Shown here piece by piece: positions 10,013 to 28,901 of a stretch of DNA of 33,119 bases. Position 1 is the first letter of the stretch, and every line of letters begins with the position of its first letter. The translations under genes were made by a program, and so were the position numbers. This DNA is from an uncultured Candidatus Saccharibacteria bacterium (GTDB lineage Bacteria; Patescibacteriota; Saccharimonadia; Saccharimonadales; Saccharimonadaceae). The notes below the pieces were generated by a model that did not search any database, was not told the origin of the DNA, and worked only from the letters and a program-made list of their open reading frames with translations. Location of the stretch: positions 1 to 33,119 of the forward strand of contig CAYGDZ010000001.1 of assembly GCA_964348805.1 (NCBI GenBank), in the 5' to 3' direction.

Positions 10013-10017
10013 GGAAA

Positions 10018-10055
10018 AGCCCTGGCAGTCTCGTTTTGTGTAGACTGCCAGGGCT
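10018..10055. terminator. perfect 14-bp hairpin between convergent genes (putative bidirectional terminator)
   Basis: AGCCCTGGCAGTCT (10018-10031) and AGACTGCCAGGGCT (10042-10055) are exact reverse complements with a 10-nt loop. The flanking U-tracts are weak. Confidence 0.55.
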
Positions 10056-10057
10056 AG

Positions 10058-10276
10058 TTAGATTTTGAGGTCGTATGCTATGCCAACTATTGCTCCAGCG
10101 AAACCCCAGAGTATAAAGATGGCGACTGTTCCGCATGAAATCCGAAACAAAACATCCTCACCTTTTGTTGAGAGCTTATTTCCGAGCGACATCTCTATGA
10201 CCGTTGTCGCTACGAAAATTAATGCAACAAATGGCATCAAGTAGCTCAAAAAACTGTTCACACTGTTCATCCTCAA
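10058..10276 (-). CDS. small membrane protein (two predicted TM helices), unknown function
   Basis: 72 aa with two hydrophobic stretches (FVALIFVATTVI and VAIFILWGFAGAIVGIA). The start could be TTG 10276 or ATG 10270. I recognise no family. Confidence 0.5.
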   Translation of the reverse strand: MRMNSVNSFLSYLMPFVALIFVATTVIEMSLGNKLSTKGEDVLFRISCGTVAIFILWGFAGAIVGIAYDLKI

Positions 10277-10370
10277 GCCGCCTTTTGATAGATTTCAAAA
10301 AGATACGAAGACTTTGTTTATAGTAAAAATAAAATTAAACTTTGTCAAGTAGTTACACCTCGGTAATCTT

Positions 10371-10379
10371 TGGTATAAT
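10371..10379 (+). promoter_or_regulatory. extended -10 promoter element TGGTATAAT, 8 nt from gatC ATG
   Basis: Exact TGnTATAAT. Only 8 nt (AGTCATCA, no SD) separate it from ATG 10388, implying a leaderless or near-leaderless gatC mRNA. Confidence 0.55.
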
Positions 10380-10387
10380 AGTCATCA

Positions 10388-10678
10388 ATGGCGAGAATCT
10401 CAAAAGACGATGTGGTGCACTTGTCACATCTATCAAACCTCAGTTTAACCGACGACGAAGTCGAGTCTATGCAGACTGATCTAGAAAATATCTTGCAATA
10501 TGTCGGTCAATTGTCTGATATCGATACGACTGGAGTGAAGCCAACATATCAAGTCAATGAACTAGAAAATATTGATCGACCTGACGAAGTTATAGATTAT
10601 GGTGTTACTCGCAAGCAATTATTGGCGACTGCGCCAGAGCAAATGGACAATCAGATAAAGGTGCCAAAGGTTATCTAA
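10388..10678 (+). CDS. gatC: Asp/Glu-tRNA(Asn/Gln) amidotransferase subunit C
   Basis: 96 aa with the typical GatC N-terminus (VxHLSxLSxLxLTDDE). It lies directly upstream of gatA with a 1-nt TAATG overlap. Confidence 0.9.
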   Translation: MARISKDDVVHLSHLSNLSLTDDEVESMQTDLENILQYVGQLSDIDTTGVKPTYQVNELENIDRPDEVIDYGVTRKQLLATAPEQMDNQIKVPKVI

Positions 10679-25730: not shown

Positions 25731-26258
25731 ATGAGTTTTGCATTAATCGACAAGGTAAATAAAGCGCAGATGAAGCCATCTGTTGTCGATGCTCGTAGTG
25801 GCGATACAGTAAAAGTCCACCAAAAGATTAAAGAAGGCAACAAAGAGCGTATTCAGGTCTTTGAAGGCGTTGTTATTCGCACTGACCGCAAAAACAGCCA
25901 TACTAGCCGCATAACTGTACGCAAAATTGCCAGTGGTGTAGGTGTAGAAAAGAGCTTTTTACTGCACAGCCCACTAGTTGAAAAGGTTGAAATTGTCCGG
26001 CGTTCAAAGGTCCGCCGTAACTACCTCAGCTACCTACGCGAACGTAGCGGTAAGAGTGCTCGTCTAAAAGGAACTAGCTTTGATCGTGAAACTGTCAACG
26101 ATGTACATGATCCAAAAGCAGAAGCCGAAGCCCAACGTCTAAAGGAAGAAGCCGCTAAAGCCGCAGCCGCAAAGGCTGAAGCGAAAGCAGCGGAAGAAGC
26201 TGAACTAGCAGCAAAGCAAGCTGAAGTCGAAGCTCGTCACTCTGAAACAGAAGCCTAA
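25731..26258 (+). CDS. rplS: 50S ribosomal protein L19 with ~60-aa Ala/Glu/Lys-rich C-terminal extension
   Basis: The L19 core has GDTVKVHQKIKEGNKERIQVFEGVVI and SPLVEKVEIVRRSKVRR. The tail DPKAEAEAQRLKEEAAKAAAAKAEAKAAEEAELAAKQAEVEARHSETEA follows from about 26073. Confidence 0.93.
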   Translation: MSFALIDKVNKAQMKPSVVDARSGDTVKVHQKIKEGNKERIQVFEGVVIRTDRKNSHTSRITVRKIASGVGVEKSFLLHSPLVEKVEIVRRSKVRRNYLSYLRERSGKSARLKGTSFDRETVNDVHDPKAEAEAQRLKEEAAKAAAAKAEAKAAEEAELAAKQAEVEARHSETEA

Positions 26259-26280
26259 TCAGTAGCTGTATAAAATAGTA

Positions 26281-26305
26281 TAACCACCCTTTTCTAGGGT
26301 GGTTA
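26281..26305 (+). terminator. rplS terminator hairpin
   Basis: TAACCACCCT (26281-26290) pairs with AGGGTGGTTA (26296-26305) across a 5-nt loop, followed by TT. Confidence 0.6.
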
Positions 26306-26313
26306 TTAGCTTA

Positions 26314-26371
26314 CAAAAAAAGAAGACCCTCTGGGTGACACCAAGTAAATGGCGTCACCCAGGTTGGGTCT
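26314..26371 (-). terminator. intrinsic terminator of mini-unit A (minus strand)
   Basis: A long imperfect hairpin spans 26324-26371 (AGACCC..TGGGTGAC..CC / GG..GTCACCCA..GGGTCT). On the minus strand it is followed by TCTTTTTTTGT (A-run 26315-26321 on plus). Confidence 0.7.
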
Positions 26372-26437
26372 GTTCCGTGCATCCTACTGGCCCTATGTCT
26401 TAGGATTCACGGAATGCGGCGTGTGCCGGCGGGTAGC

Positions 26438-26581
26438 TCAGCTCGAGTTGCACTCGCGGTGCAGACCTCCGATCAGGTTGTCGTTGGCGATGCCGTGCTC
26501 GCGGCCGGCGGTGTCGTCGTCGTGCTCCAATGCGATCTGGGTCAGGCTGCCGCTAAAAGCGGCGGGAGATCGTGCGTGCAT
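26438..26581 (-). CDS. 47-aa mini-ORF A (MHARSPAAFSGSLTQIALEHDDDTAGREHGIANDNLIGGLHRECNSS), GC-rich, unknown function
   Basis: It is below the track's length cutoff and I read it by hand. The SD GAGGTGA (26590-26584) lies just upstream, with 2 nt (AT) between GAGGTGA and the ATG (5 nt counted from the GAGG core). There is a promoter upstream and a terminator downstream on the same strand. By hand count it is about 65% GC, with 38 of 46 codons ending in G/C. Confidence 0.45.
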   Translation of the reverse strand: MHARSPAAFSGSLTQIALEHDDDTAGREHGIANDNLIGGLHRECNSS

Positions 26582-26632
26582 ATTCACCTCACGGTCGTAG
26601 TTTCAACCAGACGGTTATCTGGTATGAAAGTA

Positions 26633-26661
26633 ATACTATCACATACTAAAAAACTTGTCAA
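26633..26661 (-). promoter_or_regulatory. sigma70-type promoter TTGACA-17 nt-TAGTAT (with TG extension) for mini-unit A
   Basis: On the minus strand, TTGACA is at 26661-26656, followed by a 17-nt spacer and TGATAGTAT at 26641-26633. A second TTGACA lies at 26673-26668. The leader contains the hairpin ACCAGA/TCTGGT (26606-26623). Confidence 0.6.
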
Positions 26662-26687
26662 CAATTTTGTCAAATACGTTGGATATT

Positions 26688-26737
26688 AAAAAAGACCGCT
26701 CCCGGGTGATACCATAGGTATCAGCCCGGGATTGGTC
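26688..26737 (-). terminator. intrinsic terminator of mini-unit B (minus strand)
   Basis: Hairpin GACC..CCCGGGTGATACC (26694-26713) / GGTATCAGCCCGGG..GGTC (26718-26737). On the minus strand it is followed by TTTTTT (A-run 26688-26693). Its architecture is paralogous to the unit A terminator. Confidence 0.7.
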
Positions 26738-26762
26738 ATGTCTCACGTTGACCGGCTGTGGT

Positions 26763-26849
26763 CTACGCGACGCCGACGGATGGCTTGGTGTTGAGGAGGG
26801 CAACGGCGGTGCTCCCGCGCGACGCCGGTACCGGTACTGTGTTCTTCAT
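26763..26849 (-). CDS. 28-aa mini-ORF B (MKNTVPVPASRGSTAVALLNTKPSVGVA), GC-rich, unknown function
   Basis: Read by hand. The SD GAGGTGATC (9-nt match to the anti-SD) is at 26865-26857, 7 nt before ATG 26849. A terminator lies 26 nt after the stop. By hand count it is about 65% GC, with 22 of 27 codons ending in G/C. Confidence 0.4.
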   Translation of the reverse strand: MKNTVPVPASRGSTAVALLNTKPSVGVA

Positions 26850-26921
26850 GATCTGTGATCACCTCGTTCTAGGACCGCCATCAGCGGTCGGTTTTCGGAC
26901 TTACGCCCGATTACATCAGTA

Positions 26922-26930
26922 ATTGTAGCA
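26922..26930 (-). promoter_or_regulatory. extended -10 element TGCTACAAT for mini-unit B
   Basis: The minus strand reads TGCTACAAT. The ~65-nt leader contains the hairpin GACCGC/GCGGTC before the SD. Confidence 0.5.
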
Positions 26931-26974
26931 TATATATTTAAAAGTGGGTAAATTATTTTTGGACATGAAAATAG

Positions 26975-27267
26975 GCAAGAAAAACCTTTTACAACGGATG
27001 GCGCTATTGAAAGCACCATCCGTTGTACCAACAGTAAGGTGAAGTGATCACGACTACCAAGGCCTAGAGGCGTATGGTTCATGTGATATTCCAGACTGTG
27101 CCATTTGTGTGGTCTCGTCTTACAAAATACGGAGAGATTCAATGCGTTAGCCCATCCAGGACTGACTTGCGGTCTCTTGTTGGCCGTATCTGTATGCCTT
27201 TGTGTAAGTTTTTCTTGCCATTGTTTGTTTAAACTGCGTTGAGGAGCTTTGCAGCTCAACTCGAACT
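26975..27267 (-). ncRNA. candidate ~290-nt small RNA (mini-unit X): promoter- and terminator-delimited, no convincing ORF
   Basis: It is bounded by TTTACA-17-TACACT (27302-27274) and by the 11-bp hairpin ACAACGGATGG/CCATCCGTTGT (26991-27026). On the minus strand that hairpin is followed by AAAAGGTTTTTCTT. The only ATG ORF, MARKTYTKAYRYGQQETASQSWMG, lacks an SD. It matched no ncRNA family I could recognise by eye. Confidence 0.3.
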
Positions 27268-27273
27268 AACCTT

Positions 27274-27302
27274 AGTGTATTCCTAATGCTTACGCTTGTA
27301 AA
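27274..27302 (-). promoter_or_regulatory. sigma70-type promoter TTTACA-17 nt-TACACT for mini-unit X
   Basis: On the minus strand, TTTACA is at 27302-27297, followed by a 17-nt spacer and TACACT at 27279-27274. It lies immediately downstream of the unit C terminator. Confidence 0.45.
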
Positions 27303-27320
27303 CCCTTTTTTTGTGTTTTT

Positions 27321-27349
27321 TACAAAAAAACTACCTTTGCAGGTAGTTT
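27321..27349 (-). terminator. intrinsic terminator of mini-unit C (minus strand)
   Basis: The 9-bp stem AAACTACCT (27328-27336) / AGGTAGTTT (27341-27349) runs on the minus strand into a T-tract (A-run 27324-27330 on plus). Confidence 0.7.
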
Positions 27350-27676
27350 ACAGGTGTTTTCAAGAAAATTAGACAAGGAGAAGTGTCATATCGGGTGGTG
27401 TGTGGCCTAGATATGACCACACACCACCCGCTTCACATGTCACAGAATAACAACTCACGCTAGCAGACTCGTGTGTTTTGCCCGATAGGTAGTTGTGCCG
27501 GGCAACTATCGGACGCGTCATCTGTACATGTCGGATGAAGATTGCGTGACGAGTAATCTCGCTTCAATGAGATCGCTCGCCACGCGCTGGCCAGAGGTTT
27601 TTGCTGTTGCCCCTGTGCCACCTATGTTTATCGGCTGTCTGGATAGATGGCGTCCTCTGGCACACTGGTGGGTGAT
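27350..27676 (-). other. GC-rich, hairpin-dense untranslated segment between the Gly/Arg mini-ORF stop and its terminator (long 3' UTR or separate structured RNA)
   Basis: Helices read by eye: a 14-bp perfect stem at 27392-27430; CCGATAG/CTATCGG at 27482-27512; a three-helix stack GCGTG-CGAG-ATCTC/GAGAT-CTCG-CACGC at 27544-27585; and GCCAGAGG (27590-27597)/CCTCTGGC (27654-27661) closing a 56-nt domain. No ORF here has an SD. Confidence 0.35.
27392..27430. repeat. perfect 14-bp inverted repeat (CGGGTGGTGTGTGG / CCACACACCACCCG) with 11-nt loop
   Basis: The arms at 27392-27405 and 27417-27430 are exact reverse complements. There is no adjacent U-tract on either strand. Confidence 0.8.
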
Positions 27677-27877
27677 TTAAATCCGCCCTTCACCTCCGCG
27701 CCACTTCTTCGAGCCACAACCGAGCGTTGAACGCTCTTGTTGGCCACCACCTCCGCCCGAGCGGCGATCAAAAGCGCCACCACCACCGCGTGTGCGTGAA
27801 GGTCCGGCACCACCTCCGATTTGCTCTTGGGCGCTACCACGACCACCGCAGCGGTTACTGCCACGGATCCCGATCAT
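27677..27877 (-). CDS. 66-aa glycine/arginine-rich (RGG-type) small protein
   Basis: Track ORF. The SD AAGGAGGAAG (27890-27881) lies 3 nt before ATG 27877, with 6 nt between the AAGGAGG core and the ATG. By hand count it has 23 Gly and 10 Arg in 66 residues. The Gly codons are mostly GGT, matching local usage. An overlapping 78-aa frame lacks an SD. Confidence 0.55.
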   Translation of the reverse strand: MIGIRGSNRCGGRGSAQEQIGGGAGPSRTRGGGGAFDRRSGGGGGQQERSTLGCGSKKWRGGEGRI

Positions 27878-27974
27878 ACGCTTCCTCCTTGTCTGTGCAA
27901 TTTGAGAACGAACGCCCTCAATATCACTTACTATATTAATACTCCGCAGGGTAATAGTCTATAGTAGATCCTAT

Positions 27975-28901
27975 ATGATATTGGGAATCGACGAAGTAGG
28001 GCGCGGTGCATGGGCAGGACCATTAGTTGTTGGTGCGGTTGTGTTGGGTGGCGCACAGATTGATGGGCTAACAGATAGCAAGAAGCTGACGGCCAAGCGC
28101 CGAAGGGTATTGGCAGGCGAGATCAAGGAAAGAGCAATTGCTATAGGCTTGGGCTGGGTATCGGCCGAAACAATTGATCGTATTGGTTTGTCCGAAGCCT
28201 TGAGAATGGCGACTAGGTTGGCTGTCAAAAATATTGATGTTGATTACGATGAAATCATAATAGACGGAACAATTAACCTATTAGACGATTCCAGAGTCAC
28301 AACCATAAAACAGGCGGACCTGTTAGTTCCCAGTGTTTCCGCTGCCAGTATAATCGCCAAGGTTGCTCGTGACTATTATATGAGCAACGTTATACACAAA
28401 GATTACCCACAATATGGCTTTGATAGACATGTAGGATATGGTACAGCAGTCCACTCTGGTGCATTAATTACCCACGGACCGATTTATCTGCATAGGCTCA
28501 GTTTTACACCTGTCAAAAAAGCATTAGGGTTAGAAATCTCAGTACCCCAAAAGAAAGACAAAGTTACGGCGACTACTGGTCGCAAGGCCGAAGCAGTCGC
28601 AGCTGATTACATGATGGATCTGGGTTACGAGATTTTAGAACAAAACTGGCGAACAAAGATGTGTGAAATCGATATCGTGGCAAAAAAAGACGATGCAGTA
28701 TATCTGGTAGAAGTAAAATACCGCAAAAAAGCGACCAAAGGCGATGGCCTGAGTGCGATTACCCCGGCCAAGCTAAAACAAATGAAATTCGCGGCCCGCA
28801 TGTGGCAACATTGGCGTGATTTTAGGGGTGATATACGTCTGAGCGTGATATCGATGAGCGGTCAGCCGCCTCAAGTTGATGAATTTTTAGAGAATATATG
28901 A
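27975..28901 (+). CDS. rnhB: RNase HII fused to a YraN/UPF0102-type endonuclease-like domain
   Basis: The N-terminal ~190 aa carry GIDEVGRGAWAGPLVVGAV, DSKKLT and ASIIAKVARD (RNase HII). The C-terminal ~105 aa carry GRKAEAVAADYMMDLGYEILEQNWRTKMCEIDIVAKKDDAVYLVEVKYRK (YraN family pattern). It is a single uninterrupted 308-codon frame. Confidence 0.88.
   Translation: MILGIDEVGRGAWAGPLVVGAVVLGGAQIDGLTDSKKLTAKRRRVLAGEIKERAIAIGLGWVSAETIDRIGLSEALRMATRLAVKNIDVDYDEIIIDGTINLLDDSRVTTIKQADLLVPSVSAASIIAKVARDYYMSNVIHKDYPQYGFDRHVGYGTAVHSGALITHGPIYLHRLSFTPVKKALGLEISVPQKKDKVTATTGRKAEAVAADYMMDLGYEILEQNWRTKMCEIDIVAKKDDAVYLVEVKYRKKATKGDGLSAITPAKLKQMKFAARMWQHWRDFRGDIRLSVISMSGQPPQVDEFLENI

Follow-up and report, generated by a model that had tools for sequence, protein, structure and literature searches.

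The type I toxin-antitoxin (TA) loci hok/Sok of plasmid R1 and aapA1/IsoA1 of Helicobacter pylori produce compact, structured small mRNAs in which a helix between the 5' and 3' parts covers the Shine-Dalgarno (SD) sequence, with strong hairpins at both ends and a hydrophobic membrane peptide as product. Dual-function small RNAs (sRNAs) such as RNAIII/delta-haemolysin, SgrS/SgrT and SR1/SR1P are structured RNAs of several hundred nucleotides (nt) that carry a very small open reading frame (ORF). The comC and agrD pherotypes and the precursors of class II bacteriocins and microcins have a constant N-terminal and a hypervariable C-terminal segment. In AT-rich genomes, GC richness is a compositional signal for noncoding RNA (ncRNA) genes. 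Saccharibacteria (TM7) possess very small genomes and grow attached to other bacterial cells, and we know of no small RNAs or micropeptides described for them. Here, we have analysed the 1,716-nt gap between rplS and rnhB of a Saccharibacteria genome, hereafter the island; "the window" refers to the whole 33,119-nt stretch (33 kb, 45% GC) in which it lies.

The island probably consists of four autonomous small genes, all on the minus strand, which would fall into two classes and belong to undescribed families. A first-pass annotation of the window had placed four head-to-tail minus-strand units in the gap (C, X, B and A, in the direction of reading), and we found all four at the proposed coordinates or a few bases from them. 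Each unit would be read from its own sigma-70-type promoter into a transcript that begins with a protective 5' hairpin and ends with a very stable GC-rich stem and a U-run, with predicted 3' ends at 27362/27321 (C), 26967 (X), 26688 (B) and 26314 (A). Class I (X and C) would comprise structured RNAs of ~300-550 nt whose 5' and 3' parts are joined by a long-range helix, P1, with the consensus AGACAAGrA.. pairing with ..UyUCUUGUCU and a U-run directly after it. Class II (A and B) would be mini-mRNAs with an extended SD, (G)AGGUGAUC, about 15 conserved N-terminal residues and a hypervariable C-terminal part. The island would evolve through cassette-like swaps of unit alleles between related genomes.

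The comparison is based on 14 distinct island versions (window, L163, L165, L001, L166, L167, L168, L002, L170, L172, L003, L004, L005 and L173, where L numbers designate related loci). Their RnhB proteins are 69-100% identical to that of the window (69-89% for the 13 other relatives), and at 66% RnhB identity the island is absent, the spacer of L176 measuring 65 nt. The units are distributed as follows:

Unit X: in 14/14 genomes, L173 having X alone
Unit A: in all but L173, as a divergent, ORF-less A' in L003-L005
Unit C: in 11/14 genomes
Unit B: in the window, L163 and L165 only

X, alone among the units, occurs in every one of the 14 genomes with the island and is therefore probably the oldest. 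Extra unit copies were searched for with nhmmer, using single sequences and profiles; there were none in up to 10 kb of flank per side or in ~160 more distant loci, and the matches were confined to the rplS-rnhB spacer of the island clade. A metagenome scan gave nothing beyond a duplicate of L001. As part of the same reading, and with the same likelihood, we regard the island as clade-specific and accessory. That the units are separate tiny genes or RNAs, as had been proposed, agrees with the conservation of unit promoters and terminators in relatives and with the solitary X of L173, which suggest independent transcription.

Sigma-70-type promoters (-35/-10 boxes with 16-18-nt spacing, or an extended -10 box) were recognised for the units. 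The scan matched 10/12 consensus positions plus TG for A and 9/12 for X, and those of C and B were identified by eye. As for putative intrinsic terminators, the C and X hairpins were found by the scan, and in A and B the clamp stems are followed by U6-7. The scan also bore out the statement that U-tracts exist on the minus strand only. The proposed terminator design, a GC-rich stem followed by a U-run, held, with the correction that in X and C the U-rich stretch is the 3' strand of the long-range closing helix. Compared with dinucleotide shuffles, fold z-scores were -5.6 (C), -5.8 (X), -4.4 (B) and -4.9 (A); none of the shuffles reached the native stability. Altogether we infer that the units are transcribed and terminated individually.

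Unit X comprises the following features:

27274-27302, minus strand: promoter TTTACA-17-TACACT, found by the scan, with a predicted transcription start site (TSS) near 27267
27238-27260, minus strand: 5' hairpin, present in the folds, its pairs kept with changes in relatives
27220-27233, minus strand: single-stranded CA-rich linker (..AAACAAACAA..), unpaired in all folds and conserved as CACCAAnACAAACAAA in relatives
27208-27219, minus strand: P1 5' strand GGCAAGAAAAAC, 100% complementary to 26985-26974 (repeat I9)
27028-27207, minus strand: multibranch core, varying in sequence and length between lineages
26967-27027, minus strand: 3' end, with the 16-bp hairpin H3 (27027-26990), the P1 3' strand (26985-26974) and a U-run (26973-26967)

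The promoter (27302-27274) and the hairpin, here 16 bp long, had both been claimed earlier. The promoter is kept in all 14 versions, with GTTTACA invariant and a TAnAnT-like -10 box, and the first bases of the predicted transcript, AGUAGGU, are conserved. The strands of P1 change in concert, with the variants GGCAAG/CUUGCC, GACAAG/CUUGUC, GACGAG/CUCGUC, GACGAU/AUCGUC and GAUAAG/CUUAUC. Across the P1 alignment 88.6% of the cells are paired, and compensatory double changes occur at 5/12 pairs, in 14 cells. The covariation score was 0.273 compared with 0.125 in shuffles (0/500 reached the observed value), and slid controls gave at most 0.144. H3 is a perfect stem of 13-17 bp whose sequence differs in each of the 14 genomes. 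For the X of L003, L004, L005 and L173, the RNAalifold consensus comprised 82 pairs, of which 12 showed compensatory changes. Judged by these substitution patterns, X is a noncoding structured RNA gene.

Other roles for X were considered and rejected. A riboswitch or leader function towards the following unit fits poorly, given that this unit is preceded by a conserved strong promoter of its own and that X of L173 stands alone, followed only by the rplS terminator. A trans antisense action on A was not supported either, since cognate pairs did not differ from non-cognate ones in duplex energy or in the longest complementary stretch. The minus-strand ORF of 137 amino acids (aa) that spans X lacks conservation and has the wrong codon-position composition.

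Unit C has a similar plan:

27933-27961, minus strand: promoter TAGACT-17-TAATAT, with a predicted TSS near 27926; TAGACT-17-TAnnAT is conserved in 11 relatives
27900-27922, minus strand: 5' hairpin, seen in the fold, with an equivalent in relatives
27885-27894, minus strand: P1 5' strand AGACAAGGAG, which is also the SD of the micro-ORF, 100% complementary to 27380-27371 (repeat I25)
27677-27877, minus strand: micro-ORF of 66 aa, Gly/Arg-rich, with the N-terminus MxGIRG[ST]N
27381-27676, minus strand: structured core, z-score -5.6, with the 14-bp perfect hairpin H3 at 27430-27392 (repeat I2)
27362-27380, minus strand: P1 3' strand CTCCTTGTCT (27380-27371) and a U-rich tract, the predicted first termination point; AAUUUUUUUU comes next in relatives
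27324-27349, minus strand: second intrinsic terminator, a 9-bp stem with U7, found by the scan (-10.9 kcal/mol) and conserved in relatives

The SD AAGGAGG, the ORF (27877-27677) and the terminator hairpin with its U-run (27349-27324) had been described before and were all found. Across relatives the order is promoter, 5' hairpin, AGACAAGGAG(A), body, perfect H3, (U)CUCCUUGUCU, U-run and second small terminator. P1 is strong in 8 genomes (-17 to -28 kcal/mol), with the U-run directly after it; L163 shows a compensatory A>G/U>C change, and the distal pairs covary. The shared part order and the shared P1 sequence suggest that X and C are probably paralogous.

The ORF of C is more variable than its RNA. 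It is intact in the window, L002, L003 and L004 and absent from L163, L165, L168, L172 and L005, and L170 has a 38-aa Arg/Lys-rich ORF in its place. Where the N-terminus MxGIRG[ST]N is kept (window, L002 and L167), codon differences are mainly synonymous, and between the Gly ORFs of L003 and L004 the proportion of synonymous differences (pS) is 0.50 and that of nonsynonymous differences (pN) 0.056. In L167, the C ORF (minus strand, gap positions ~87-265) has an in-frame TGA after codon 16, beyond which another ~41 Gly/Arg-rich codons follow in the same frame. The stop may reflect a fresh pseudogene, read-through or recoding. The C core is 90-91% identical to those of L163 and L165 (rnhB, 82%), and more generally the C RNA core reaches 90-95% identity where rnhB reaches 82-84%. 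Because the ORF is optional while the RNA core stays conserved, we read C as primarily an RNA gene that may optionally carry a peptide. By analogy with the hok and aapA1 mRNAs, the C ribosome-binding site would be base-paired in the finished transcript, and since the P1 5' strand is itself the SD, the peptide would be made only during transcription or after 3' trimming. With low confidence, we suggest that X and C act as stable, end-clamped regulatory or protein-binding RNAs.

The same helix allows C and X to be seen as a fold-back type I toxin-like family of the hok and aapA1 kind, which we hold to be unlikely. The C peptide, cationic or Gly/Arg-rich, would then be harmful and silenced by pairing of the 3' end with the SD, and X and the C alleles that lack the ORF would represent decay products or antidote-like forms. 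Inclusion of the C SD in a 5'-3' long-distance helix, the plan and P1 sequence common to X and C, and the repeated loss, TGA truncation or replacement of the C ORF (by the 38-aa ORF in L170) are compatible with such a family. However, the C peptides contain no hydrophobic segment, being Gly/Arg-rich or Arg/Lys-rich, and the window scan pointed to no promoter on the plus strand opposite C apart from the rnhB one. X lacks extended complementarity to A, with cognate and non-cognate pairs alike, and cross-pairing between the P1 strands of X and C, judged by eye, is possible in some genomes but weak in the window. Moreover, the 90-95% conservation of ORF-less C cores argues for an RNA function and not for decay.

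Returning to the four-gene reading, class II is represented by units B and A. Unit B contains:

26922-26952, minus strand: promoter TTTACC-19-TACAAT with an upstream TG (TGCTACAAT, 26930-26922), predicted TSS near 26915
26873-26910, minus strand: leader with hairpins at 26910-26895 and 26889-26873, both conserved in L163 and L165
26763-26865, minus strand: extended SD GAGGTGATC (26865-26857) and 28-aa ORF MKNTVPVPASRGSTAVALLNTKPSVGVA (26849-26763), with a GC content at codon position 3 (GC3) of 0.82
26688-26737, minus strand: clamp terminator with U6 (-31.4 kcal/mol), homologous to the A terminators, with covarying stems

Unit A contains:

26633-26673, minus strand: promoter with tandem TTGACA boxes (26673 and 26661) and an extended -10 box, TGTGATAGTAT, predicted TSS near 26626
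26606-26623, minus strand: leader hairpin, seen in the fold, with an equivalent of different sequence in relatives
26438-26590, minus strand: SD GAGGTGA (26590-26584) and 47-aa ORF (26581-26438), GC3 0.83, with a period-3 signal exactly on the ORF
26315-26414, minus strand: hairpin of the 3' untranslated region (UTR; 26414-26373) and clamp terminator with U-run (26370-26315), repeats I5 and I8, -35.9 kcal/mol

These lists include the elements already claimed for the two units: in B, TGCTACAAT, the SD, the ORF and the terminator (26737-26688); in A, TTGACA-17-TAGTAT with an upstream TG (26661-26633), the hairpin (26623-26606), the ORF and the terminator. The GACC/GGTC clamp shared by the A and B terminators is local, as had been described. 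For B, RNAfold offered a long-range closing helix, which we rejected in favour of the local hairpin GACCGC..GCGGTC, conserved in L163 and L165 and the better explanation. The terminators of A and B align, with stems that covary across both units, and the peptides are homologous too, in line with the duplication suggested earlier. On this comparison, A and B are paralogous mini-mRNAs.

A profile of the A promoter built from 10 clade sequences rematched them with E-values of 1e-16 to 1e-23, by construction, and hit nothing further among the loci examined. In the same promoter, TTGACAA occurs twice as a direct repeat with a distance of 12 nt (26662-26673 and 26652-26661, minus strand), conserved in the 10 profile genomes; this tandem could be a regulator-binding site overlapping the -35 box.

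The 13 A/B peptides form one family of 28-59 aa with the N-terminus MK....[LP]AAARG[ST][TP]. Predicted micropeptide starts in the island are MKNTVPVPASRGST.., MHARSPAAFSG.. and MIGIRGSN... Nearly all family members have an SD 4-12 nt ahead of the start codon, often in the extended form (G)AGGUGAUC, which is complementary to the 16S rRNA 3' terminus of bacteria. The first-pass annotation proposed translation of the mini-ORFs, and the strong period-3 composition together with a pS far above pN at the conserved N-termini points the same way. N-terminal values of pS versus pN were 0.33 vs 0.03, 0.36 vs 0.045 and 0.82 vs 0.06 (for codons 1-15 of B against L163, pS 0.33 and pN 0.03). The AAARG motif itself is kept through synonymous codons, GCG GCU GCU CGG GGC in L168 and GCC GCG GCA CGC GGC in L001. 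An RNA hairpin, GCCGCG..CGCGGC, was considered as the cause of this conserved block and rejected, L168 encoding the same amino acids with other codons and no hairpin. C-terminally, pN equals or exceeds pS (0.19 vs 0.06; 0.40 vs 0.38), and the sequences have frequent indels and are unalignable, although the window and L170 have a common A C-terminus, IGGLHREC.SS. GC3 was 0.81-0.92 in 10/11 detected A/B ORFs (0.66 in L168), compared with 0.28-0.44 (mean 0.41) in 19/19 ordinary window genes. This high GC3 possibly results from GC-biased gene conversion at a hotspot or from selection for very stable mRNA folding at wobble sites. With low confidence, we take A and B to be interaction peptides of an epibiotic bacterium, bacteriocin- or pheromone-like, with a constant leader and a variable core.

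The selection pattern of the A/B ORFs also has to be weighed against their being regulatory leader or arrest peptides, where translation of the N-terminal motif would control 3' folding or termination of the same transcript, or read-through antisense to rplS. Purifying selection on nothing but a short N-terminal motif fits this, as do the structured 3' UTR and terminator directly after the ORF and the G/C-ending codons, which run against genome usage and would include many rare codons. Yet there is no downstream target: the next unit has a strong promoter of its own, and the hairpin at 26306-26280 blocks entry into rplS. In addition, known arrest peptides have their conserved motif at the stalling site, near the ORF end. 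We consider this account quite unlikely.

The units do not share a single history. Between L163 and L165, nucleotide identity is 84% in rnhB, 95% in C, 94% in B, 89% in X and 66% in the A body, and 40-nt windows of 100% identity span ~240 nt. L001 and L166 are 82% identical in rnhB and 90.5% in X, and in their A ORF identity drops from ~98% to ~50% mid-gene. The X core of L163 and L165 is nearest to that of L002 (65-67% identity, RnhB 80%) and farther from those of the window and L001 (42-50%, RnhB 88-90%). X alleles are hence incongruent with RnhB relatedness, and the mosaic pattern as a whole indicates allele exchange or recombination. In the same pattern we see signs that C, X and B are strongly constrained and that A diversifies. 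Where C, X and B are closer between genomes (89-95%) than rnhB (82-84%), as in L163/L165, L001/L166 and window/L163, co-occurring species may have exchanged them recently, or the units may be under very strong constraint.

A bolder version of the four-gene reading, which we regard as a long shot, would make the island a hypervariable interaction locus of an obligate epibiont. The A/B peptides would be effectors or kin- or host-recognition signals under diversifying selection, perhaps together with the X/C RNAs, and cassettes would be swapped between co-occurring Saccharibacteria species. The twofold GC3 excess would reflect adaptation to, or origin from, a high-GC actinobacterial host, and X and C would be a new class of P1-clamped RNAs.

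The four-gene reading in its plainer form also has to contend with several observations. Raw enrichment of signals is modest, with 8 promoter-like sites found and 4.2 +/- 2.4 expected, and 8 terminator-like sites with 3.1 +/- 2.0 expected, all scored by an Escherichia coli-type consensus. The B promoter has a 19-nt spacer in the window, where it relies on TGn-TACAAT, compared with 17 nt in L163 and L165. Covariation statistics are limited by the 14 related sequences, and the P1 alignment was made from hand-extracted strands. In L003-L005, A' is divergent and ORF-less and P1 of C is not convincing, and unit A of L167 is without a clear SD. By our estimate, sequence of 63% GC could quite plausibly contain ORFs of 28-59 codons by chance, and the C-terminal halves of A and B are without purifying selection, so their peptide product may be of no consequence. 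Genes for processing, export or immunity were not found within ~10 kb. Finally, C, X and B may look more conserved than they are on account of recombination.

The features that frame the island are the following:

25731-26258, plus strand: rplS
26280-26306, strand unassigned: 11-bp hairpin closing the island, which would serve as rplS terminator and as a stop for any unit A read-through, with an equivalent hairpin in all relatives
27960-27965, plus strand: rnhB -10 box TATAGT, back-to-back with the unit C promoter and conserved directly upstream of rnhB
27975-28901, plus strand: rnhB, an RNase HII-YraN fusion downstream of the spacer

The neighbouring genes encode a SpoU methylase, a PilB-like ATPase, malic enzyme, L19, RNase HII, Pol IV, aminopeptidase N, NusA and ClpB, and the nearest relatives of RnhB are Saccharibacteria or Patescibacteria metagenome-assembled genomes throughout. 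In many relatives, rplS and rnhB lie next to each other in the same orientation, this synteny being general in Saccharibacteria. The gap holds no credible long ORF, and ARAGORN found no tRNA or tmRNA in it. Within the window, patches of GC >=0.6 coincide with the A, B and C-ORF regions only. Over 141 Saccharibacteria loci the rplS-rnhB spacer has a median of 112 nt (range 8-2157 nt, ~60 nt typical), and ~40% of the loci contain insertions of 300-2150 nt with unrelated small accessory genes. These varied insertions mark the spacer as an insertion hotspot. At least several of them are minus-strand genes with their own promoter and terminator. Examples of insertions are L035 5051-6000, L061 5706-6000, L077 5378-6000 and L070 1525-2360, and the L035 spacer has another GC-rich ORF behind a strong promoter.

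Some further observations concern the flanks and the rest of the window. L19 (25731-26258) is 175 aa long in the clade, with a conserved core of ~128 aa followed by an Ala/Glu/Lys-rich C-terminal extension (tail ~26115-26258); more distant relatives match residues 1-128 only. The rnhB product (27975-28901) joins RNase HII to a YraN/UPF0102 (endonuclease-like) domain, and the same 300-310-aa fusion (Pfam PF01351 + PF02021) occurs in relatives with domains listed, with hundreds more full-length matches. The other large spacer of the window, 10013-10677, is ordinary: a 96-aa plus-strand ORF ends at the start of the next gene (possibly gatC, judged by position only), and a 72-aa hydrophobic, membrane-like ORF lies on the minus strand.

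We looked for the island in sequence and family databases. At the gathering score, Rfam gave 0 matches over the whole window, to 6S, SRP, RNase P, tmRNA, OLE, ROOL, GOLLD, raiA, HEARO, riboswitches or any other family; under permissive settings the best in the gap was RNAI (25.5 bits, 47 required), and the gaps of 5 relatives gave nothing at E <=1. No A/B peptide matched Pfam or NCBIfam at E <=1. An A/B peptide profile searched against 5.8 billion proteins returned two matches only, both within the clade, and phmmer against 1.84 billion representatives returned two weak ones only, large proteins with multiple matched stretches. Comparison with plasmids and phages by blastn gave no matches, and exact patterns were absent from viral contigs. 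Literature searches turned up no described sRNAs of such a kind in Saccharibacteria or Patescibacteria, and no micropeptides in Saccharibacteria. Several origins were rejected on such grounds. A host or foreign source of the GC-rich ORFs finds no homologue outside the clade in billion-scale protein searches. A mobile element remnant, a miniature inverted-repeat transposable element, a phage or a plasmid would not agree with a single copy per locus and none in up to 10 kb of flank per side, with P1 arms that covary instead of being fixed, or with the lack of mobile-DNA matches. For a diversity-generating retroelement or retron, no reverse transcriptase was present among the called genes of neighbouring loci.

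It is very unlikely that the island holds plus-strand features (the rplS 3' UTR, the rnhB 5' UTR or plus-strand ORFs) or one long minus-strand read-through RNA. The co-directional, adjacent rplS and rnhB of many relatives would suit plus-strand features, as would the 91-aa plus-strand ORF reported by gene callers. This ORF (26414-26689, plus strand; also L081 4440-4715) is an antisense shadow of the A ORF, not conserved and atypical in codon-position GC, and the plus-strand ORFs of 91, 83, 70 and 61 aa are likewise without conservation beyond nucleotide identity and have the wrong codon-position composition. U-runs, SD and start arrangements and period-3 frames are all on the minus strand, and rnhB has its own conserved -10 box directly upstream. 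A single read-through RNA is difficult to reconcile with a content that varies unit by unit between genomes, as separate genes would. Two outcomes that would have spoken against the original proposal did not materialise: close relatives do conserve the region, and Rfam yielded nothing that would explain it from the plus strand. The proposal's expectation that automated annotation would miss the locus was also borne out, gene callers either skipping the A and B ORFs or calling the spurious 91-aa ORF. Least probable of all is non-functional debris, that is, foreign GC-rich DNA decaying in an insertion hotspot with chance promoter- and terminator-like sequences: the hotspot with its unrelated contents, the atypical GC composition and the dispensability of single units in some lineages suit it, but promoters, P1 helices and hairpins are kept with compensatory changes in 14 genomes, peptide N-termini are under purifying selection, units are more conserved than the adjoining rnhB, and no foreign homologue was found.

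If the four-gene reading is correct, the locus would contribute three new families, two of structured RNAs (X and C) and one of micropeptides (A/B), each with evolutionary signatures of function. The end-to-end, SD-occluding helix of C offers a chance to test fold-back translational control outside classical toxin systems. Mosaicism, units that outconserve housekeeping genes and extreme GC3 together provide a tractable case for studying fast-evolving interaction genes and wobble-site forces in uncultivated bacteria. For annotation, GC-rich spacer patches in such lineages merit a check for small genes on the strand opposite the called ORF. The first-pass annotation had stated that no standard feature class explains the locus; the families are indeed undescribed, and the statement was too strong in that the units would be sRNA and small-protein genes.

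Compared with the known systems, C resembles the hok and aapA1 mRNAs in its compact structured form, its 5'-3' helix over the SD and its strong hairpins at both ends. Long-distance SD sequestration of the type I TA kind is predicted through pairing of AGACAAGGAG with CTCCTTGTCT in 8 genomes. Unlike in those systems, the C peptide is Gly/Arg-rich (Arg/Lys-rich in L170) and not a hydrophobic membrane peptide. The ORF is optional, with an RNA core conserved also where it is missing, and X has the same clamp with no ORF. No antisense antitoxin was found for C in the window scan, and complementarity between X and A is at chance level. As a structured RNA of several hundred nt with a very small ORF, C also resembles RNAIII, SgrS and SR1, from which it differs in having no Rfam sequence or structure match.

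The 13 A/B peptides have the conserved leader and variable core of ribosomally synthesized and post-translationally modified peptides (RiPPs), bacteriocins and pheromones. With comC and agrD they share the constant N-terminal and hypervariable C-terminal segments and allelic replacement between close relatives. They differ from these and from bacteriocin precursors by extreme GC3 and by the lack of a double-glycine or other recognised cleavage motif. They differ from RiPP and bacteriocin precursors also in that there are no maturation, export or immunity genes within ~10 kb and no match to a known precursor family. Finally, the units are GC-rich within a window of 45% GC and have significant folds, as do the GC-rich structured-RNA islands used for ncRNA finding in AT-rich genomes; here, part of the GC excess sits at codon position 3 of the micro-ORFs and not only in helices.

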